DNA of 63,318 nucleotides, the filler included. It is 6 parts of 6 records of this genome, joined end to end, with 100 filler letters (N's around TTAATTAATTAA, not from the genome) between each part and the next. Parts side by side here need not be neighbours in the genome. Positions count along the whole stretch, not along the records: positions 8,212 to 15,238 come from SRR31156797_13881; 5 more parts are not named here. The stretch is one strand, 5' to 3'. This document shows, in pieces, positions 8,112 to 49,504 of this stretch. The notes under the pieces are model-generated. The model saw only the letters and a program-made list of their open reading frames with translations, did not search any database and was not told the DNA's origin. Within the stretch, counting starts at the first letter, position 1, and each line of letters begins with the position of its first letter. The translations under genes and the position numbers were made by a program.

Positions 8112-8211
8112 NNNNNNNNNNNNNNNNNNNNNNNNNNNNNNNNNNNNNNNNNNNNTTAATTAATTAANNNNNNNNNNNNNNNNNNNNNNNNNNNNNNNNN
8201 NNNNNNNNNNN
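8112..8211. other. Artificial contig-join spacer
   Basis: N run containing TTAATTAATTAA (stops in all six frames). Confidence 0.98.
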
Positions 8212-8253
8212 CAACGGAATAATCCTTATTGTGAATTGCTTCATAATTGTATG
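8212..8253 (-). ncRNA. tracrRNA, 5' part (truncated by the contig edge)
   Basis: Minus strand reads ATACAATTATGAAGCAATTCACAATAAGGATTATTCCGTTG. This is an anti-repeat to GTTGTGAATTGCTT-type Bacteroidetes II-C repeats followed by the AAGGATTATTCCGTTG segment recalled from Bacteroidetes tracrRNAs, and it lies upstream of and divergent from cas9. Confidence 0.85.
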
Positions 8254-8257
8254 ACTA

Positions 8258-8288
8258 CAAAAATAGAAATAAATATGATTTATACAAG
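8258..8288 (-). promoter_or_regulatory. Bacteroidetes-type promoter for the tracrRNA
   Basis: TATTTTTG (TAnnTTTG, -7 box) at 8265-8258 and TTG (-33) 19 nt upstream. Confidence 0.6.
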
Positions 8289-8390
8289 TGGAGTATTTAC
8301 GAAGAAGTGAGGTGGATTATGATTTGTTTTGTTAATCAATTCTTTTAACTTTAATCATACATTTTTATTAATCTTAAAAATAATCCTAAA

Positions 8391-8777
8391 ATGTCAGTTA
8401 AATTTAAAGTTATTGAAAAAGGCCAGCCTGGTGTTGTGGGTGGTGGCGAAAAAAAGTTTTATGCAAATGCTTCTACAAGCGGAGAATTAACACTGGACAA
8501 ACTTACCAAACGTATTGAGAAAAACAGTACTGTAGGAGGAGCAGATATCAGGGCTGTACTGTATGCTATGGTCGAAACTATGCAAGATGCCATGGAAGAT
8601 GGACAAATTGTTCGTTTAGGTGATTTAGGTAGCTTACGCGTAAGCGTTAGCAGTAATGGGGAAGATACAGCCGAAGATGTTACCGTCAGGTCTATTAAAG
8701 GAGCAAAAACAGTTTTTACACCAGGTAAAAACCTAAAGGCCATGCTTAAAAATTTAACGTACGAAAAGATTTCCTAA
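8391..8777 (+). CDS. Bacteroidetes HU/IHF-related DNA-binding protein
   Basis: 128 aa; MSVKFKVIEKGQPGVVGGGEKKFYA N-terminus, GQIVRLGDLGSLRVS and FTPGKNLK HU-like motifs. Confidence 0.88.
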   Translation: MSVKFKVIEKGQPGVVGGGEKKFYANASTSGELTLDKLTKRIEKNSTVGGADIRAVLYAMVETMQDAMEDGQIVRLGDLGSLRVSVSSNGEDTAEDVTVRSIKGAKTVFTPGKNLKAMLKNLTYEKIS

Positions 8778-8799
8778 AACCGGAAGTTAGATCTCAAAA

Positions 8800-8882
8800 A
8801 AAACGTAGCGTGCTTTTACTCAAAAGCACGCTACGTTTTTACAAAAACCACACGTGTTTTTTTTAAAAGGACGTGTGGTTTT
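8800..8882. repeat. Four phased AAAA-N10-TTTT units forming two inverted-repeat pairs
   Basis: AAAACGTAGCGTGCTTTT (8800), AAAAGCACGCTACGTTTT (8822), AAAACCACACGTGTTTTT (8844), AAAAGGACGTGTGGTTTT (8865). Confidence 0.85.
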
Positions 8883-8944
8883 TGGGTGTTATAAAGTGAG
8901 TTTTGTAAGATATTGAAATATAGTAATATAAATAACCAGGCAAT

Positions 8945-11900
8945 ATGAGAAAAATATTAGGACTGGATTTAGGGACAACATCGATTGGATGGGCTTTTGT
9001 TCATGAAGCAGAGAGTGAAGATGAAGAATCAAAAATTGTTCGCTTAGGGGTAAGAGTAAATCCCCTTTCAACAGATGAACAGCAAGATTTTGAAAAAGGC
9101 AAAAGTATAACCGTTAATGCTGATAGAACTTTAAAACGAGGAGCGCGAAGAAATCTTGACAGGTATCAACAACGAAGAGCAGAACTGATTAGTTTATTAA
9201 AAAAAGCAGGTTTAATAACTGATAATACCATTTTAACAGAAAATGGAAAATTTACTACTCACCAAACGTTACAGTTGCGAGCTAAAGCCGCATCAGATAA
9301 AATAGAGCAAGAAGAATTGGCAAGAGTGTTACTTGCCATCAATAAAAAAAGAGGTTATAAAAGTAGTCGTAAAGCTAAAAGTGAGGATGAAGGGGCTGTA
9401 ATTGATGGTATGGAAGTAGCCATGCAATTATATGAACATAACCTTACCCCGGGGCAGTTTTGTTTACAGTTGTTAGAAAAAGGTAAAAAAGTAATGCCCG
9501 ATTTTTATCGCTCCGACTTAAAAGCAGAGTTCGATAAAATATGGAATTTCCAAAAGGGGCATTACCCTGATGTTTTAACTGATGAGTTGTATAAAGCATT
9601 AGATGGACAAGGCCAACAGAATACACGTAAAAGGTTTTTGGCCATAAAAGATGTTTATACGGCCGATAATAAGGGAACCAGAGACAGTAAAAAGATTACG
9701 GCTTATACCTGGCGAAGCAAAGCGGTAAGAGAAAAATTAGATATGAGTGAGGTAGCCTATGTGCTAACAGAAATAAACAATGATTTGAATAAATCGAGCG
9801 GATATCTAGGGGCTATCAGTGACCGCAGTAAAGAGTTATACTTTAATAAAGAAACAGTTGGTCAGAATCTGTATGGCCAAATTAAAAACAACCCGCATAC
9901 AAGACTTAAAGGTCAGGTGTTTTATCGGCAGGATTATTTGGATGAATTTGAAAGAATTTGGGAAACCCAAAAGCAGTTTCATCCGGAACTGAGCCAGGAG
10001 TTGAAGTCAGCAATTAGAGATACTGTTATTTTTTATCAGCGCAGACTTAAATCGCAAAAGGGACTTATTAGTTTTTGCGAATTGGAGAACAAGCAAATTG
10101 AGTTAGAAATTGAAGGGAAGAAGAAGATAAAAACCATAGGGATGCGGGTAGCTCCAAAATCATCTCCCTTGTTTCAGGAATTTAAAATCTGGCAAATTCT
10201 GGCCAATGTTGAAGCTAAAAATCTAAAATCTAAAGAAATACTTAAGCTTAATCAGGAGCAAAAACAATTGCTTTTTAACGAACTAAACGTAAAAGGTCAT
10301 TTAACCAAAGCACAAGCCTTAAGTATGATAAGCGATAATGCTAAAGAGTGGGATTTAAACTATAAAATACTGGAAGGCAATAAAACCAATCAGGCATTTT
10401 ACGAAACATATCAATCTATTTTGCGACATGAAGGAAATGATGCCATTGACTTTAATAAACTTAAGGTTGCAGAAATAAAAGAAGCAGTTGAAAACATTTT
10501 TAATTCATTAGGTATAAATACAAAAATATTGGATTTTGATGCTGAGTTAGATGGAAAAGCCTTTGAGAACCAACCTTTTTATCAGCTTTGGCATTTATTG
10601 TATTCTTATGAGGGTGATAACTCAAATACAGGTAACGATTCTTTATTTAAGAAGTTAGAGGAGAAATTTGGATTTAAAAAAGAGCATGCACAGTATCTGG
10701 TTAATGTTGATTTGCCAGATGATTATGGAAGTTTGTCAACCAAAGCCATACGTAATATTTTTCCTTATATCAAAGAAAATAACTATAGTGACGCATGTGC
10801 TTTGGCCGGGTATAATCATTCCAATTCAATAACTAAGGAAGAGAACGAAAAAAGGACGTTAAAAGACAGGTTAGAGTTGCTGCCTAAAAATTCATTACGT
10901 AATCCGGTTGTAGAAAAGATTTTAAACCAAATGGTTAATGTTGTAAATGCCATTATCGACGATGAGGAATTAGGTAAGCCCGATGAAATTAGAATAGAGT
11001 TGGCCAGGGAGTTAAAGAAAAATGCGAAAGAAAGGGCTGAAATGACACAAAATATCAATAAGGCCAAAACAGAACATGAAGTTATTCGGAATAAACTAAA
11101 AAAAGAATTCAATATAGCTTATCCAACTCGGAATGATATAATTAGATATAGGTTATATCAGGAATTGAAAAGCGAGGGGTACAAAACGCTTTATACTAAC
11201 CAATATATCTCTCCGGAGCAGCTTTTTTCCAAGGAAATAGATATTGAGCATATCATTCCAAAAGCCCGGTTGTTTGATGATAGTTTCTCAAATAAAACCC
11301 TTGAATTCAGGCAGGCGAATATTGACAAGAGCGATGAAACAGCCTATGATTTTGTTTCTGATAATTATGGAGAAGCGGCATTGGAAACTTACAAAAGCAG
11401 GGTGCAAAATCTGTACAAGCTTAACGAAATTAGCAAGGCTAAATATCAAAAGCTATTAAAAACAAGCGATGAAATAGGGGAGGGTTTTATAGAGCGAGAC
11501 TTGCGCGAAAGTCAATATATTGCTAAAAAGGCAAAGCAAATGTTACTGGAGTTATGTCGCACTGTGGTTTCAACTAGCGGAAGTATTACCGATGTTTTAC
11601 GCGAAGACTGGGGATTGATTAATACGATGAAGGAGCTAAACCTCGAAAAATATAAAATGCTGGGATTAACCGAGATTCATGAAAACAGAGATGGCAAAAA
11701 AATAGAACGCATTAAAGATTGGACAAAACGTAACGATCATCGTCATCACGCTATGGATGCACTTACTGTTGCCTTTACAAAACACAATCATATTCAGTAT
11801 TTAAATAATCTTCATGCCCGAAAGAATGAACAGCACAAAGCGCATGGCAATATAATAGCCATCGAAAAAAAGGAATTGTTTAGAGATGATAACGGGAAAA

Positions 11901-13048
11901 AGAAATTTAACTTACCTATGCCTCAATTCCGTAGCCAGGCGAAAGAACATTTAAACAATATTCTTATTTCTCATAAAGCCAAGAATAAGGTGGTTACCCA
12001 AAATAAAAATAAGGTAAAAGGTAGTAATGTAGTGCAAACTGCTTTAACTCCTCGAGGTCAGTTACATCTTGAAACTGTGTACGGTAAATCTCTTAAGTAT
12101 GAAACAAAAGAAGTGGCAGTGGGTGCTAAGTTTGATGCAGATACGATTGCTATGGTTGCTAATAAGGTATATAGAGAGGCTTTGTTGAAAAGGCTAACTG
12201 AAAATGGGAATGATCCTAAAAAAGCTTTTGTAGGTAAAAATAGTTGGGCAAAGAATCCTGTCAAATGTTCTAATAATACATATGTACCTGAAAAAGTGAA
12301 GCTGGTTTGGCTCGATAAGCAATATACTATACGAAAAGATATTACTCCGGATTTAAAGATTGATAAAGTTATAGACAAAGGCATTCAGACTTTGTTGAAG
12401 AAAAGGCTGGAACAATATGATGGTGATGCCAAAGACGCTTTTTCAGATTTAAAGAAAAATCCAATTTGGTTGAATAAAGAAAAAGGTATCTCGATAAAAA
12501 GAGTTACGATATTGGGCATTAATAATGCAGAAGCCTTACATATTAAAAGAAATCATTTTGGAAAGCCTGTATTAAATAAGCAAGGAAAACAGGAGCCGGT
12601 TAGCTTTGTAAATACAGGTAATAATCACCATGTAGCCATTTATAAAGACGCAAAAGGAAACCTGCAAGAAGAAGTAGTTTCGTTTTATGAAGCTGTAGCT
12701 CGCGTAAATGCAAATGTGCCTGTTATAAAAACGGAACATGAAAACGGGTGGCAGTTCTTATTCTCTATGAAACAAAACGAAATGTTTGTTTTCCCTTCAA
12801 ATGATTTTAATCCAAAAGAAATAGATTTATTAAACCCGGATAATTATGGTTTAATAAGTCCTCATTTGTATAGGGTACAAAAGTTTACAAATAAGGATTA
12901 TTTTTTTAGGCATCATTTAGAAACCAATGTTGAGAATAATAAGCAAACCTGCAATGTGGCCTGGAAAAGAGAAGGATTGAAAGGGATTTTGGGAATTGTA
13001 AAAGTAAGAATCAATCATTTAGGTAAAATAGTTTTTGTAGGCGAATAG
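8945..13048 (+). CDS. cas9: Type II-C CRISPR endonuclease Cas9
   Basis: 1367 aa; RuvC-I ILGLDLGTTSIGWA, bridge helix RTLKRGARRNLDRYQQRR, LRNPVVEK, RuvC-II IRIELARE, HNH DIEHIIPKARLFDDSFSNK and RuvC-III DHRHHAMDAL; cas1 and cas2 present with no csn2 or cas4 in the contig. Confidence 0.98.
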   Translation: MRKILGLDLGTTSIGWAFVHEAESEDEESKIVRLGVRVNPLSTDEQQDFEKGKSITVNADRTLKRGARRNLDRYQQRRAELISLLKKAGLITDNTILTENGKFTTHQTLQLRAKAASDKIEQEELARVLLAINKKRGYKSSRKAKSEDEGAVIDGMEVAMQLYEHNLTPGQFCLQLLEKGKKVMPDFYRSDLKAEFDKIWNFQKGHYPDVLTDELYKALDGQGQQNTRKRFLAIKDVYTADNKGTRDSKKITAYTWRSKAVREKLDMSEVAYVLTEINNDLNKSSGYLGAISDRSKELYFNKETVGQNLYGQIKNNPHTRLKGQVFYRQDYLDEFERIWETQKQFHPELSQELKSAIRDTVIFYQRRLKSQKGLISFCELENKQIELEIEGKKKIKTIGMRVAPKSSPLFQEFKIWQILANVEAKNLKSKEILKLNQEQKQLLFNELNVKGHLTKAQALSMISDNAKEWDLNYKILEGNKTNQAFYETYQSILRHEGNDAIDFNKLKVAEIKEAVENIFNSLGINTKILDFDAELDGKAFENQPFYQLWHLLYSYEGDNSNTGNDSLFKKLEEKFGFKKEHAQYLVNVDLPDDYGSLSTKAIRNIFPYIKENNYSDACALAGYNHSNSITKEENEKRTLKDRLELLPKNSLRNPVVEKILNQMVNVVNAIIDDEELGKPDEIRIELARELKKNAKERAEMTQNINKAKTEHEVIRNKLKKEFNIAYPTRNDIIRYRLYQELKSEGYKTLYTNQYISPEQLFSKEIDIEHIIPKARLFDDSFSNKTLEFRQANIDKSDETAYDFVSDNYGEAALETYKSRVQNLYKLNEISKAKYQKLLKTSDEIGEGFIERDLRESQYIAKKAKQMLLELCRTVVSTSGSITDVLREDWGLINTMKELNLEKYKMLGLTEIHENRDGKKIERIKDWTKRNDHRHHAMDALTVAFTKHNHIQYLNNLHARKNEQHKAHGNIIAIEKKELFRDDNGKKKFNLPMPQFRSQAKEHLNNILISHKAKNKVVTQNKNKVKGSNVVQTALTPRGQLHLETVYGKSLKYETKEVAVGAKFDADTIAMVANKVYREALLKRLTENGNDPKKAFVGKNSWAKNPVKCSNNTYVPEKVKLVWLDKQYTIRKDITPDLKIDKVIDKGIQTLLKKRLEQYDGDAKDAFSDLKKNPIWLNKEKGISIKRVTILGINNAEALHIKRNHFGKPVLNKQGKQEPVSFVNTGNNHHVAIYKDAKGNLQEEVVSFYEAVARVNANVPVIKTEHENGWQFLFSMKQNEMFVFPSNDFNPKEIDLLNPDNYGLISPHLYRVQKFTNKDYFFRHHLETNVENNKQTCNVAWKREGLKGILGIVKVRINHLGKIVFVGE

Positions 13049-13054
13049 CCTTAC

Positions 13055-13085
13055 AGCGGTTTTCGCCAGTTTTGGCGAAACCGCT
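13055..13085. repeat. REP-like GC-rich hairpin, copy 1
   Basis: AGCGGTTTTCGCCA-GTTT-TGGCGAAACCGCT, starting just after the cas9 stop. Confidence 0.8.
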
Positions 13086-13119
13086 AATAAATAAAATACA
13101 AACTAAAACTTTTTCAACC

Positions 13120-13719
13120 ATGCCAGCTCGTAACTTTAGAATACCTATAGAGGAAAATAAATTTTACCACGTATGGAATCGTGGCAATAATCGTGAAAAT
13201 CTGTTCTATAATTCCGGGAACTACGAGTATTTTATCCGCTTATACGATTATTATATGGATGCAGTGGTAGAAACCTATGCCTTTGTTTTGCTGCCGAATC
13301 ACTTCCATTTTTTAATACGTACCAAGCAGTTTCGCTATGCTAGCGAAACCGCTAAGTTAAATATGAATCCGGTTAGTGCTGCCTTTCGAAAATTATTTAC
13401 AGCTTACTCGCAGGCCATCAACATACAGCAAAAAAGAACCGGTAGTTTGTTTCAAAAGCCATTTAAGCGTTTAGAAGTAAAAACAACCATGCAGTTGGCT
13501 AACTTGGCTCATTATATCCATACCAATCCTCAAAAACACGGTATTTGCAGCGACTTTAGGTATTATGCCTGGAGTAGCTATGAAAGAATAATTAAAAACA
13601 AACCTTCGAAGCTAAAGAAAGATGAAGTACTGCAATGGTTCGGTAATACTAACAATTACTTACATTTTCATACAAAAGAAATTGATTTAGAAGTTTTAAA
13701 AAGCCTGATGATAGAATAG
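13120..13719 (+). mobile_element. Y1 HUH transposase, RAYT / IS200-IS605 TnpA-like (199 aa)
   Basis: FYHVWNRGNNRENLF, AFVLLPNHFHFLI (HUH), RTGSLFQKPFKR, YIHTNPQKHG (catalytic Tyr plus NP) and YAWSSY motifs. Confidence 0.92.
13325..13353. repeat. REP-like hairpin, copy 2, inside the transposase ORF
   Basis: AGCAGTTTCGCTA-TGC-TAGCGAAACCGCT; shares GCGAAACCGCTAA with copy 1. Confidence 0.8.
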
Positions 13720-13842
13720 ATTATTTAGTTTGTTTATCAATTACTCATATTGATTAGTCAATGTTATGTATGTAGATATCAATATGTTTTAGTTATCTCA
13801 ATTGGGTGTTCGTATTGTAGGTAGAACCTTAAATTAGTTACA

Positions 13843-14745
13843 ATGATTAAGCGAACCCTTTATTTTGGTAATCCTGCCTATCTGCACAAAAGCAATCTAC
13901 AATTAAAAGTACTAGAACCTAAATCACATCATGAATTAGGGAGTATTCCTATAGAAGATGTAGCTGTAGTGTTACTCGACCATCCCCAAATAACGATAAC
14001 TCATGCACTGATGGCTAGTTTACTAGAAAGAAACACAGCTATTATTAGTTGTGATACTAAGCATATGCCTACGGGTTTAATGTTACCTCTTGATGGAAAC
14101 ACGCTACAGTCGGAGCGCTTTAAGCACCAAATAGATGCCAGCGAGCCATTAAAGAAAAATCTTTGGCAACAAACAGTTAAAGCAAAAATAGAGAATCAAG
14201 CAGCATTGTTTCAACGTTTTGCATTAGATAATAGGCGTTTAAAAGCATTGATTCCCCAAATTCAAAGTGGAGATCCTGACAATGTGGAAGGCAGAGCAGC
14301 CTCGGTTTATTGGAAACTCTTGTTTGAAAATGAAAGTTTTACTCGTAATAGGTACGGAGAAGCACCTAATGCGCATTTAAACTATTGCTATGCTATTTTA
14401 CGTTCAATAGTTGCACGAGCCTTAGTATCTAGTGGTTTACTTCCTACTTTAGGTATTTTTCATCGAAATAAGTACAATGCTTATTGTTTGGCCGACGATA
14501 TTATGGAACCCTATCGTCCTTTTTGCGATGAACTGGTGTATGGTATGTGGTTAAATGGAGAAATTGTTAATGACGAAATAAACCGGGATCAAAAGGCAAA
14601 ACTGTTGAGTATTGCCAATGTAGATGTGCTATTTGATAAACAAAAAAGCCCATTGATGGTAGGTTTGAGTCGATCAACTAATTCCTTATTAGAATGCTTT
14701 AAGGGAGAACGCCGAAAAATAATTTATCCAACTTTTCATAGTTAA
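13843..14745 (+). CDS. cas1: Type II CRISPR-associated integrase Cas1
   Basis: MIKRTLYFGNPAYL, IPIEDVAVVLLD, NVEGRAA, LNYCYAILR, LGIFHRNKYNAYCLADDIMEPYRP. Confidence 0.97.
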   Translation: MIKRTLYFGNPAYLHKSNLQLKVLEPKSHHELGSIPIEDVAVVLLDHPQITITHALMASLLERNTAIISCDTKHMPTGLMLPLDGNTLQSERFKHQIDASEPLKKNLWQQTVKAKIENQAALFQRFALDNRRLKALIPQIQSGDPDNVEGRAASVYWKLLFENESFTRNRYGEAPNAHLNYCYAILRSIVARALVSSGLLPTLGIFHRNKYNAYCLADDIMEPYRPFCDELVYGMWLNGEIVNDEINRDQKAKLLSIANVDVLFDKQKSPLMVGLSRSTNSLLECFKGERRKIIYPTFHS

Positions 14746-15090
14746 ATGCCAATGTCATTCGAAGCTATTAATCAATATCGTAATATGTGGGTACTTGTTC
14801 TTTTTGATATTCCGGTTGAAACTAAAAAACAAAGAAAGGCGGCCACAAAATTCCGCAAACAATTAGTTCAGGATGGTTTTGCTATGTTTCAGTTTTCCAT
14901 TTATATGCGTAACTGTCCCAGCAGAGAAAACGCTGATGTACATATTAAAAGGGTCAAATCAATGTTGCCGGAGTATGGTCATATAGGTGTATTGAAAATT
15001 ACAGATAAACAGTTTGGAATGATGGAACTCTTCTACAGTAAGAAGCCGGCAGAGAAACCTCAGGTAGTACAACAGCTACAACTTTTTTAA
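14746..15090 (+). CDS. cas2: CRISPR-associated protein Cas2
   Basis: [46 protein letters not shown]. Confidence 0.97.
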
Positions 15091-15120
15091 CTGAATTTAG
15101 AGTCAGGGAATTGCCTTATA

Positions 15121-15160
15121 AAAATAAAATCCGAACCAAATTTTGGTCGGATTTTATTTT
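15121..15160. terminator. Bidirectional terminator-like hairpin after cas2
   Basis: AAAATAAAATCCGAACCAAA-T-TTTGGTCGGATTTTATTTT. Confidence 0.75.
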
Positions 15161-15210
15161 CTACCGTCTTTGCTAACTGTTTGTGAATTTTAAAGTTGCG
15201 GGCAATACCA

Positions 15211-15238
15211 TGTCAAAGACCGCATTAAATATACAATT
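15211..15238 (-). CRISPR. Probable truncated first CRISPR repeat; the array itself is not assembled
   Basis: Contig ends ...ATTAAATATACAATT, and its last 8 nt (ATACAATT) equal the first 8 nt of the tracrRNA anti-repeat. The position after cas2 is where a II-C array is expected. The left boundary is estimated. Confidence 0.5.
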
Positions 15239-15338
15239 NNNNNNNNNNNNNNNNNNNNNNNNNNNNNNNNNNNNNNNNNNNNTTAATTAATTAANNNNNN
15301 NNNNNNNNNNNNNNNNNNNNNNNNNNNNNNNNNNNNNN
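15239..15338. other. Artificial contig-join spacer
   Basis: N run containing TTAATTAATTAA. Confidence 0.98.
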
Positions 15339-26408: not shown

Positions 26409-26508
26409 NNNNNNNNNNNNNNNNNNNNNNNNNNNNNNNNNNNNNNNNNNNNTTAATTAATTAANNNNNNNNNNNNNNNNNNNNNNNNNNNNNNNNNNNN
26501 NNNNNNNN
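26409..26508. other. Artificial contig-join spacer
   Basis: N run containing TTAATTAATTAA. Confidence 0.98.
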
Positions 26509-48491: not shown

Positions 48492-49504
48492 GGTTGGTTC
48501 CTTTGTCCTACCGAGTCTCCACCGGAGGCTTGGTGATTTTCTCTCATAGGGCCTAAGGGCCTGTGTCCTACCGAGTCTCCGCCGGAGACTCGACGATTTG
48601 TTCTCTTGGGGCCTGAGGGCCTTTTCCCGCTGAGGCTGACCTTCTCCTGGATAACATGGAGGAACATCAGGGCGATGAGAACGGTCATTATGAATGTCAC
48701 GCTGGCGAGGGCCGAGCCATAGCCGTAGTTTCCGGCGTCGAAGTATGTCCGCAGGGTGTAGAGTGTCAGAGACTCTGTGGTATTGGCCGGCCCTCCGTTG
48801 GTCAGGGCGACTATGATGGTATAGACCTTGAAGGACTGGATCATCCGGAACAGAAGGGCCGTCGAGAGGATCGGCTTCAGCAGGGGCAGGGTTATTCTGA
48901 AGTAACGTACGGCCCCTCCCGCGCCGTCTATGGAGGCCGCTTCCATCAGATGACGGGGAATGTTCTGCAGCCCCGCGAGGACCAGCAGGGACACATAGGG
49001 CGCCGTTTTCCAAATATCCGCCAGGATCAGGATAAACCGGGCCGTCTCCGTCTGGCTGAGCCAGGGTATGAACCTTTCTATAATGCCGGCGGACTGAAGG
49101 ATCTGATTGAACACGCCGTACTGGTCATGAACCATGATATTCCACATAAAGCCGCTGACGATGGTGGGGATGGCCCAGGGTATCAGTACGACGACCCGGA
49201 GCACGGCCTTTCCCTTGTACTCACGGTTCATAAACTGGGCGAATAACAGCCCCAGGATCAGCTCTGCCGATACGGTGGCTGCCGTGAACAGCAGGGTGAA
49301 GGACAAAGCCGTGTAAAAGCGTTCGGTCGTCAATAGGCGGATGTAGTGCTTCAGCCCGACGAATTGCTTCATCTCTCCGAACTGAAGGCGGTATTCGAAG
49401 AAGCCCAGGACCAGTGTCCTCAGGACGGGGTAGACGGCGAATACCGCAAAGATGATCAGGGTAGGAGAGATCATCAGGTATCCCAGTTGCTTTCTCGTCA
49501 TCAA
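48488..49504 (-). CDS. Carbohydrate ABC permease (MalF-like) with a repeat-derived C-terminal extension
   Basis: LIPWAIP, DIWKTAP, EAASIDGA, TNGGPANTT. Confidence 0.92.
   Translation of the reverse strand: MMTRKQLGYLMISPTLIIFAVFAVYPVLRTLVLGFFEYRLQFGEMKQFVGLKHYIRLLTTERFYTALSFTLLFTAATVSAELILGLLFAQFMNREYKGKAVLRVVVLIPWAIPTIVSGFMWNIMVHDQYGVFNQILQSAGIIERFIPWLSQTETARFILILADIWKTAPYVSLLVLAGLQNIPRHLMEAASIDGAGGAVRYFRITLPLLKPILSTALLFRMIQSFKVYTIIVALTNGGPANTTESLTLYTLRTYFDAGNYGYGSALASVTFIMTVLIALMFLHVIQEKVSLSGKRPSGPKRTNRRVSGGDSVGHRPLGPMRENHQASGGDSVGQRNQP
48501..48620. repeat. Two 60-bp tandem units with an internal hairpin
   Basis: CT(T/G)TGTCCTACCGAGTCTCC(A/G)CCGGAG(G/A)CT...GGGCCT(A/G)AGGGC at 48501 and 48561; perfect CGAGTCTCC-GCC-GGAGACTCG stem in unit 2. 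Confidence 0.9.

Follow-up and report, generated by a model that had tools for sequence, protein, structure and literature searches.

The contig SRR31156797_13881, at positions 8,212 to 15,238 of the window analyzed here (a stretch of 63,318 nucleotides of joined contigs), carries a type II-C CRISPR-Cas locus in which a gene encoding a 199-aa protein is found between cas9 and cas1. This gene encodes a REP-associated tyrosine transposase (RAYT; REP, repetitive extragenic palindrome) of the HUH/Y1 type, whose nearest published group is the TnpA_REP subclass 2.4. In the lineage of the window, the block formed by rayT, cas1, cas2, and the array has been passed on as a unit and joined to different cas9 genes. 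From these relationships, the RAYT appears to be an enduring component of the spacer-acquisition module, long inherited with cas1-cas2 while the neighboring cas9 was repeatedly swapped. The family to which it belongs entered CRISPR loci of three types repeatedly, via several independent captures, in most cases at the 5' border of these genes for adaptation.

The RAYT and its linkage to cas1 and cas2

The 199-aa protein carries the motifs PNHFH (H61 and H63) and YIHTNP (Y132). The HUH motif and the tyrosine were invariant in 18 of 18 sequences and then in 83 of 83 family members, in whose alignment H17, L57, H61, H63, N101, Y132, and N136 are the invariant positions. The protein matches the NCBIfam profile NF047646 (REP_Tyr_transpos; E 1.7e-15, 57.2 bits, cut-off 80 not reached) and the Pfam profile PF01797 (Y1_Tnp; E 0.0018, 18.8 bits, gathering score 23 not reached); with both scores below their cut-offs, it is by sequence a divergent RAYT member. 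The AlphaFold2 model built from the 83-member alignment (pLDDT 93.5, pTM 0.90) retrieved with Foldseek, as the top fold match in the PDB, the Escherichia coli TnpA_REP bound to REP (4er8_A; E 1.1e-8, TM 0.70), behind which the IS200/IS605 TnpA structures ranked with E 8e-5 or weaker. At the sequence level, a phmmer search against PDB sequences returned only 4er8 (E 0.78), and public records name the close homologues “transposase” or “REP element-mobilizing transposase RayT”. The family is present in low copy number, with one strong match in genome G001 and one to five match rows per genome in 68 of the 301 Bacteroidota genomes sampled. Enzymes of the RAYT-type HUH/Y1 class cut and rejoin single-stranded DNA beside a recognized hairpin. 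Two other identities were tried and rejected: an IS200/IS605 insertion sequence, given the single strong copy in G001 and a contig without any open reading frame (ORF) of the size of tnpB or iscB, and PcrIIC1, given the HUH rather than PIN fold and the missing co-variation with Cas9. Indeed, neither the family-profile nor the fold searches gave any PIN family match for this protein.

The linkage of this gene to cas1 is complete among its closer relatives: all 14 that are at least 65% identical have a type II cas1 as the next gene downstream (loci L001, L003, and L006, and 11 metagenome loci). The metagenome contig scan yielded 26 relatives, 11 of them at 65–69% identity and 15 at 47% or less. 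In the former, the next gene is a type II cas1 (68–74% identical to that of the window), followed by cas2 (75–81%) where the contig extends; one of the 11 has just the first 28 Cas1 residues on its contig, and L217, L218, and L224 are apparently identical to L216. A cas9 is present in all seven that reach upstream, but its protein is only 25–55% identical to the window Cas9. No cas gene was found near any of the 15 metagenome relatives at 47% identity or less. The identities to the window proteins (in percent) are as follows.

L003: HUH 99, Cas1 99, Cas9 97
L006: HUH 80, Cas1 82, Cas9 90
L001: HUH 76, Cas1 84, Cas9 85
L215: HUH 67, Cas1 71, Cas9 37
L216: HUH 68, Cas1 70, Cas9 28
L219: HUH 66, Cas1 74, Cas9 55
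L220: HUH 67, Cas1 70, Cas9 25
L201: HUH 52, Cas1 53, Cas9 31
L203: HUH 48, Cas1 49, no Cas9 on the contig

Pairwise identities of the HUH protein follow those of Cas1 very closely (r = 0.96; 55 pairs from 11 loci), while they are poorly related to those of Cas9 (r = 0.43, rho = 0.14; 28 pairs). The initial annotation of this contig, made from the letters alone, had asked whether the cas9-transposase-cas1 order recurs and whether the trees are congruent: the order does recur (in 19 of 74 related loci, see below) and the HUH protein tracks Cas1, but Cas9 is not tracked. The comparison between L215 and L216 illustrates this, since their HUH proteins are 88% identical and their Cas1 proteins 93%, with Cas9 proteins at 24%. 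Compared as DNA, L215, L216, and L220 become homologous either where the HUH gene starts or some 30 nt downstream of its start, and they remain so across cas1 and cas2 into the array. As a separate observation, the Cas9s of these three loci are mutually 24–37% identical, yet their CRISPR repeats and adaptation genes are almost the same, raising the question of how such unlike Cas9s use one repeat and tracrRNA.

In the tree of 118 family members, the window falls in a clade of 11 rows in which every member is cas1-linked (SH-aLRT 100), and the next clade (15 rows, support 91) comprises 13 linked and two free members. The truncated ORFs of L085, L088, and L080, the second L036 copy, and the duplicates L217, L218, and L224 were omitted from the trees. 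The HUH gene is under strong purifying selection, with a ratio of nonsynonymous to synonymous substitutions (dN/dS) of 0.04–0.09 within the window clade, where dS is saturated for the distant pairs; between the window and L006, dN amounts to 0.137 for the HUH gene and 0.125 for cas1.

The locus, its boundaries, and its hairpins

Positions 8212–15238 of the window correspond exactly to one contig of 7,027 bp, bounded at both ends (8112–8211 and 15239–15338) by linkers of the form N44-TTAATTAATTAA-N44. Five such linkers occur in the whole window, the other linker cores being located at 26453, 47411, and 58179, so that six contigs are chained. Their G+C content is about 35% in the first two and then 45–51%, 58–64%, 56–59%, and 52%, and they probably come from different organisms. 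Given these strong differences, the adjacent contigs should not be taken for neighbors and give no genomic context. Elsewhere in the chain, an unrelated contig of high G+C content contains a 60-nt tandem repeat (two copies, 82% matches; 48500–48622). Along the plus strand, the order is an HU-HIG gene, two palindromes, cas9, a hairpin, the 199-aa ORF, cas1, cas2, a palindrome, and a partial CRISPR repeat, with the following features.

8231–8255, minus strand: anti-repeat-like stretch; by eye, 21 of 25 bases match the CRISPR RNA (crRNA)-sense form of the 47-nt repeat of L003
8391–8777, plus strand: gene for a 128-aa DNA-binding protein of the HU-HIG family (Pfam PF18291, E 9.5e-35)
8799–8884: two terminator-like palindromes between the HU-HIG gene and cas9
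8945–13048, plus strand: type II-C cas9, 1,367 aa (TIGR01865, E 4.8e-146), with RuvC_III and HNH_4 domains and the nuclease motifs present
13055–13085, plus strand: 5' cognate REP-like hairpin AGCGGTTTTCGCC-AGTTTT-GGCGAAACCGCT between cas9 and the HUH gene, 7 nt past the cas9 stop
13120–13719, plus strand: gene for the RAYT-family HUH Y1 nuclease, 199 aa; HUH motif codons at 13300–13308, codon of the catalytic Tyr132 at 13513–13515
13325–13353, plus strand: in-frame hairpin AGCAGTTTCGCTA-TGC-TAGCGAAACCGCT within the HUH ORF, related to the 5' hairpin
13843–14745, plus strand: type II cas1 (TIGR03639, E 5.1e-88)
14746–15090, plus strand: cas2 (TIGR01573, E 1e-21)
15121–15160: terminator-like, perfect-loop palindrome after cas2, an inverted repeat with 20-nt arms that are 90% complementary
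15209–15238, minus strand: first 30 nt of the first CRISPR repeat, inside which the contig breaks; the same sequence opens the 47-nt repeat of L003

Therefore, the description given in the initial annotation holds: an intact HUH ORF lies on the same strand between cas9 and cas1, the GC-rich hairpin stands just after the cas9 stop, cas9, cas1, and cas2 look intact, TnpB- and IscB-sized ORFs are lacking on the contig, and the RAYT-like character proposed for the enzyme beside the hairpin agrees with the profile match, the motif alignment, the structural model, and the fold match to 4er8_A.

The locus has the gene content of type II-C, that is cas9, cas1, and cas2, and neither csn2 nor cas4 gave a match among the contig ORFs of at least 100 aa; the array is complete in L003, and the anti-repeat is recognized by eye only. 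This anti-repeat-like stretch may be the start of a tracrRNA reading leftward off the contig start; an Rfam scan of the contig returned nothing at or near the gathering scores. The Cas1 residues E149, H207, and D219 are invariant among 65 Cas1 sequences. The nearest public locus is L003, on the chromosome of a Saccharicrinis metagenome-assembled genome, with a Cas9 that is 97% identical and an array of the 47-nt repeat family comprising 26 copies with a 77-nt period. At the array end of the contig, we observed a strong promoter-like site (TTGACA-18-TAAAAT, 11 of 12 positions; minus strand, 15216–15187) that begins within the first CRISPR repeat and faces cas2. The crRNA promoters embedded in repeats occur in other II-C systems, which this site fits.

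The HU-HIG gene upstream of cas9 is also present in L001, L003, and L006 (78–100% identical). In L036 (10648–11043) and L070 (5146–5541), it is located between cas9 and the HUH gene. A full HU match was found in five of the 80 related loci, all five of which carry a RAYT too; L068 has only an HU fragment of 25 residues, far upstream, and no RAYT match.

Regarding the hairpins, the window has the flanking cognate REP hairpins typical of RAYTs, in the form of the 5' and the in-ORF hairpins. The former is kept in L003, L006, and L001; it has no T-run behind it and was not called by the terminator scan. The in-ORF cognate hairpin is found at +205 to +264 of the ORF in most relatives, and a palindrome just past the HUH motif is present in 20 of 20 cas-linked and 39 of 63 free rows (minimum stem 9). 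Sister loci present up to three hairpins (between cas9 and the gene, in the ORF, and between the gene and cas1), the first two of which occur in the window lineage; the 3' hairpin, with the same core, is found in four sister loci (L215, L219, L220, and L221). The common core is GGTTTC(A/G)CC ... GG(T/C)GAAACC, and changes in the stems compensate each other: the window clade has CGCC/GGCG, the sister clade has CACC/GGTG, and the outer pairs covary (21 hairpins).

In G001, G002, and G003, the half-site of the 5' hairpin (one mismatch allowed) was found only at the locus and at one or two single-mismatch sites, with comparable controls in G002 and G003. The hairpin being undispersed in these genomes, the window RAYT has no visible REP population to serve. 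Free family members, located outside CRISPR loci, typically have near-identical GC-rich palindromes on both sides, and a palindrome of one type is dispersed in four of five genomes (7, 17, 14, and 23 sites, and 0 in G220; controls all 0). The hairpins are local only in G001–G003, G094, G306, G307, and G004 (0 in G308), and also for the free copy L106 in G114, and they are dispersed for the cas-linked L092 in G066. As these results were mixed, the lack of dispersed REPs was dropped as a discriminator between cas-linked and free copies. Two further arrangements were observed. In G066, which carries the cas-linked RAYT of L092, copies of the motif CTTGAAGGGTT often form inverted pairs about 61 nt apart (contigs C4, C10, C69, C94, C109, and others), and in L109 (G028:C165:9390-11387) two near-identical tandem RAYTs are interleaved with five identical palindromes at a spacing of about 490 nt, a local RAYT-REP amplification.

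Distribution in CRISPR loci and across Bacteroidota

We retrieved 80 relatives of the window Cas9 from GTDB genomes, 74 of which have a cas1 downstream on the same strand. The gap between cas9 and cas1 is at most 163 bp in 41 of these 74 loci, contains the HUH family in 19 (16 intact and three degraded copies), and holds other content or is long and unexplained in 14. The intact copies are those of L001, L003, L006, L017, L022, L024, L025, L033, L036, L052, L055, L058, L062, L063, L070, and L078. Sister Cas1s can be accompanied by different HUH lineages, as in L024 versus L063 and in L058 versus L036 and L070. The other gap occupants, according to Pfam, are HIRAN, a DUF2204/DUF6036 nucleotidyltransferase, PRiA4_ORF3, HU-HIG, DUF6155, an AAA_14/DUF4143 ATPase, an IS4-type transposase, and an AraC regulator; two further gap-occupant families have no Pfam match. 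Several of these genes recur, namely HIRAN (three loci), the nucleotidyltransferase (three), PRiA4_ORF3 (two), an unannotated gene of about 264 aa (four), and an unannotated gene of 102–149 aa (two), as counted in L005, L008, L010, L020, L026, L037, L039, L052, L053, L064, and L068. It is possible that these recurrent genes are further II-C accessory genes.

Beyond the relatives of this Cas9, the family profile was searched against 301 evenly drawn Bacteroidota genomes and gave 118 rows at E ≤1e-25 in the 68 genomes matched. For these rows, we examined 111 loci, excluding G001 itself and G148:C33. Twelve of them are CRISPR-linked and belong to types II-C, I-B, and III-A, and 99 are found outside CRISPR. 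In three II-C loci (L090, L092, and L102), the order cas9-HUH-cas1-cas2 is accompanied by a Cas9 only about 25% identical to that of the window. A fourth, L103 (G049:C7:9000-25000), is a complete II-C locus (cas9-cas1-cas2-array) whose array ends 53 nt from an opposite-strand RAYT. The other neighbors of this RAYT are syntenic with those of the free orthologues L091, L093, L094, L096, L097, and L104, which suggests that the CRISPR locus arrived next to a RAYT already resident there. In type I-B, the HUH gene lies upstream of cas4-cas1 or cas1 in L089, L118, L154, L156, and L196, and L132 has a cas4 fragment; L152 is a type III-A locus with the order cas6-HUH-array-cas10, and L108 shows a cas6-HUH pair. 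From the gene maps, nine of the 12 linked copies immediately precede cas1 or cas4-cas1. An order-level sample (401 genomes, 1.5-kb flanks) added 14 non-self matches at E ≤1e-45, of which three were linked (L201, L203, and L213).

The linked copies are polyphyletic, requiring 14 label changes on the 118-row tree, at least four of them forced by well-supported branches. Nearly all are co-oriented with the cas genes (31 of 32, strands read from gene maps). Moreover, the HUH gene ends at most 13 nt before cas1, or overlaps it, in nine of the 20 II-C loci compared. A start-stop overlap with cas1 occurs in L055 and L102. Some free copies form orthologue sets whose neighbors are conserved, and no other recurrent non-cas neighbor family was found within 4 kb apart from such lineage-specific synteny.

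Possible roles and relation to known systems

We tentatively favor, with confidence somewhat short of even, the reading in which the RAYT is an accessory of the adaptation module. The protein would be active, would bind the local hairpins, and would have been kept because it serves this module; it may process single-stranded or hairpin DNA for spacer uptake or, as the other option, control the expression of cas1-cas2 at the hairpins, in either case probably without Cas9 involvement. Three observations favor this role: unrelated module types have repeatedly captured such a gene at an equivalent position, the gene is integrated into the operon, and the window lineage has no REP population for it to serve. 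A more general proposal, which we consider possible but less likely than not, is that this RAYT lineage was repeatedly recruited as a third adaptation component (rayT-cas1-cas2 in II-C and rayT-cas4-cas1-cas2 in I-B), whose hairpin-directed cleavage and rejoining of single-stranded DNA would feed or shape prespacers, or would swap effector genes in situ at the hairpin seam.

Several observations weigh against an accessory role. The gene is missing from 55 of the 77 rows of the Cas1 tree, i.e., from most related II-C loci, its presence on this 77-locus tree needs 13 gains or losses (at least seven forced by well-supported branches), and the gap copies of L011, L040, and L080 are degraded. In L023, a Cas1 81% identical to that of the window is combined with a different Cas9 (65%) and an empty gap of 163 bp, which retains motifs of the cas1 upstream region; because of the tree, we read this empty site as a loss of the RAYT. 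The initial annotation had taken empty sites and homologues in non-CRISPR contexts as signs against a functional link, and here the evidence is divided: the empty site in L023 and the 99 of 111 loci outside CRISPR go against the link, while the exclusively cas1-linked subclade of the window goes for it. The presence of unrelated genes in the cas9-cas1 gap (HIRAN, nucleotidyltransferase, PRiA4_ORF3, IS4 transposase) indicates that the gap is a permissive site, and the window unit retains its own hairpins, like free RAYTs. In G066, the motif described above, searched as an 11-mer only, occurs at 18 sites versus two in the control; with this dispersed REPIN-like population, the RAYT of L092 behaves as an ordinary RAYT. 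In addition, the co-divergence with Cas1 could reflect physical linkage only. Finally, long persistence under purifying selection as single-copy genes is a general trait of RAYTs wherever they are located, as described in PMC5581495, and therefore persistence alone shows no CRISPR role.

A competing explanation, which we regard as a realistic possibility although one with clearly less than an even chance, is that a commensal or selfish RAYT-REP unit occupies the permissive seam between the effector and adaptation modules of an often-transferred cassette and is co-inherited by linkage alone, maintained by the same forces as RAYTs elsewhere and with no role in immunity. The retained cognate hairpins, the REPIN-like doublets of G066, the patchy distribution with some degraded copies, the use of the same gap by unrelated genes, and the persistence of RAYTs as single-copy genes under selection (PMC5581495) all agree with it, as do the predominance of family loci without CRISPR linkage, several of them forming syntenic orthologue sets, and the whole II-C locus of L103 beside a RAYT with otherwise free-type neighbors. 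However, such a unit leaves unexplained why independent captures fell immediately 5' of cas1 or cas4-cas1 in adaptation modules of two unrelated types, with the linked copies almost always co-oriented with the cas genes, and why start-stop overlaps with cas1 occur. Neither does it account for the fact that about 11% of the family is located in CRISPR loci, which occupy well under 1% of a genome, nor for the lack of any other recurrent non-cas neighbor beyond lineage-specific synteny. We consider it unlikely that the RAYT is a module mobilizer, which would cut and rejoin at the cas9-side hairpin and thereby promote effector exchange or movement of the rayT-cas1-cas2-array block. The near-identical HUH-cas1 blocks behind unrelated cas9s (L215 and L216) would fit this activity. 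In addition, DNA homology sets in no more than about 30 nt from the start of the HUH gene, or right past the cas9 stop, which is the site of the 5' hairpin, and in-situ cas9 shuffling beside a conserved cas1 has been described in Flavobacteriales II-C loci (PMC12669027). Nevertheless, the relevant passages of that report mention this shuffling without RAYTs, most II-C loci lack the gene, the breakpoint may simply coincide with a gene boundary, and excised or circular forms were not observed, although no reads were mapped to the locus.

Of the two explanations offered in the initial annotation, a recent passenger insertion fails, and a functional partner holds only in part: help with spacer supply or with mobility of the module may be involved, but action on the single-stranded DNA of Cas9 R-loops lacks support. 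The position directly after cas9 would suit an enzyme that acts on the strand displaced in R-loops or boosts interference in the manner of PcrIIC1, a proven Cas9 partner that occupies the same cas9-cas1 gap in other loci. Since exchanges of cas9 leave the gene in place beside cas1-cas2 (Cas9 proteins of 25–55% identity stand beside HUH proteins of 66–69%, and the correlations with Cas9 are low), this link to Cas9 is unsupported; the family also occurs in loci of types I-B and III-A, where Cas9 is absent, and its fold is HUH, not PIN, so that we consider a Cas9 partner very improbable. The recent insertion of a mobile IS200-like element, suggested by the small size of the unit (about 670 bp for hairpin and ORF, resembling IS200) and by the empty site in one relative (L023), is refuted. 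The three loci with the closest Cas9s all contain the gene, which is also found upstream of a type II cas1 in 11 of 11 metagenome relatives at 65–69% identity, stays in place down to about 50% identity while co-diverging with Cas1, and evolves at the low dN/dS given above; only one strong copy is present in G001, a search elsewhere gave no identical ones, and the best fold match is a RAYT and not the TnpA of IS200 or IS608.

Co-evolving with Cas1-Cas2, staying as cas9 is swapped, and entering the adaptation modules of several CRISPR types, the RAYT provides a concrete and testable setting for two questions, the function of RAYTs and the adaptation accessories of II-C systems. To our knowledge, no function has been agreed on for RAYTs, which are widespread domesticated transposases whose role has been open since their discovery, and we know of no dedicated adaptation accessory in type II-C such as Csn2 or Cas4. 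The RAYT also marks the exact recombination seam of the effector and adaptation modules, and for tool builders it would represent a compact, predicted nuclease/ligase for single-stranded DNA hairpins that is naturally linked to a spacer integrase. Should it be a mere hitch-hiker, CRISPR adaptation modules would be vehicles for RAYT-REP systems, whereas published work otherwise has RAYTs vertically inherited. Our literature search for a RAYT or Y1 gene between cas9 and cas1 retrieved only one review sentence (TnpA, with Cas9 >1,700 aa) and a figure legend naming a “Y1 Tpase”, and no description of a RAYT co-evolving with Cas1-Cas2, although the Data S2 of Altae-Tran et al. (2023) or the tables of Zhang et al. 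(2024) may list the family; part of the Y1-CRISPR association may thus already be catalogued. The words “CRISPR” and “Cas1” do not occur in the main survey of HuH/TnpA_REP diversity (PMC6006769).

Among known systems, the E. coli TnpA_REP (4ER8) shares with the window protein the HUH motif, a single catalytic tyrosine in a YI..NP..HG helix, the fold, the low copy number, and the accompanying GC-rich palindromes. In contrast, the identity between the two is just 19%, the window hairpin is undispersed in the nearest genomes, and the window gene is inside a cas operon. The resemblance to the TnpA_REP subclass 2.4, equated by Quentin et al. (2018) with the group 4 of Bertels, concerns the NH[IFV]H motif (NHFH in the window), the length of about 194 aa, the occurrence in Bacteroidetes, and the REP within the tnpA_REP gene, an insertion that is described as the hallmark of this subclass (PMC6006769). 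The published YIxNNP motif differs from the YIHTNP of the window, and the assignment is based on motif, length, distribution, and hairpin features.

Similarly, the II-C Cas9s associated with PcrIIC1 (Zhang et al., 2024) have an accessory gene in a Bacteroidota II-C locus, but PcrIIC1 is described as a PIN-domain protein that binds the C-terminal helix of Cas9 (PMC13153721; PMC12669027), unlike the HUH-fold protein of the window, which tracks Cas1. The TnpA-associated II-C variants also have a gene of the Y1 transposase family beside a II-C cas9 (PMC10734277), with Cas9s of more than 1,700 aa in contrast to the 1,367 aa of the window (1,245–1,285 aa in sister loci) and to its RAYT with REP-like hairpins, these variants being compared by description only. 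In the set of putative auxiliary genes of CRISPR systems given by Altae-Tran et al. (2023), the “Y1 Tpase” is likewise a Y1 enzyme flagged as CRISPR-associated, which may or may not be of this family and in this position; the searched passages of that report describe neither a mechanism nor a co-evolution with Cas1 (PMC10910872). Type II-C is otherwise described as lacking Cas4 and Csn2 (PMC10734277). Compared with the add-ons Cas4, Csn2, and RT-Cas1, the RAYT of the window has a role predicted from sequence, and in type I-B it adjoins Cas4 instead of replacing it; like them, it is a nuclease gene on the 5' side of cas1-cas2 that is inherited together with these genes.

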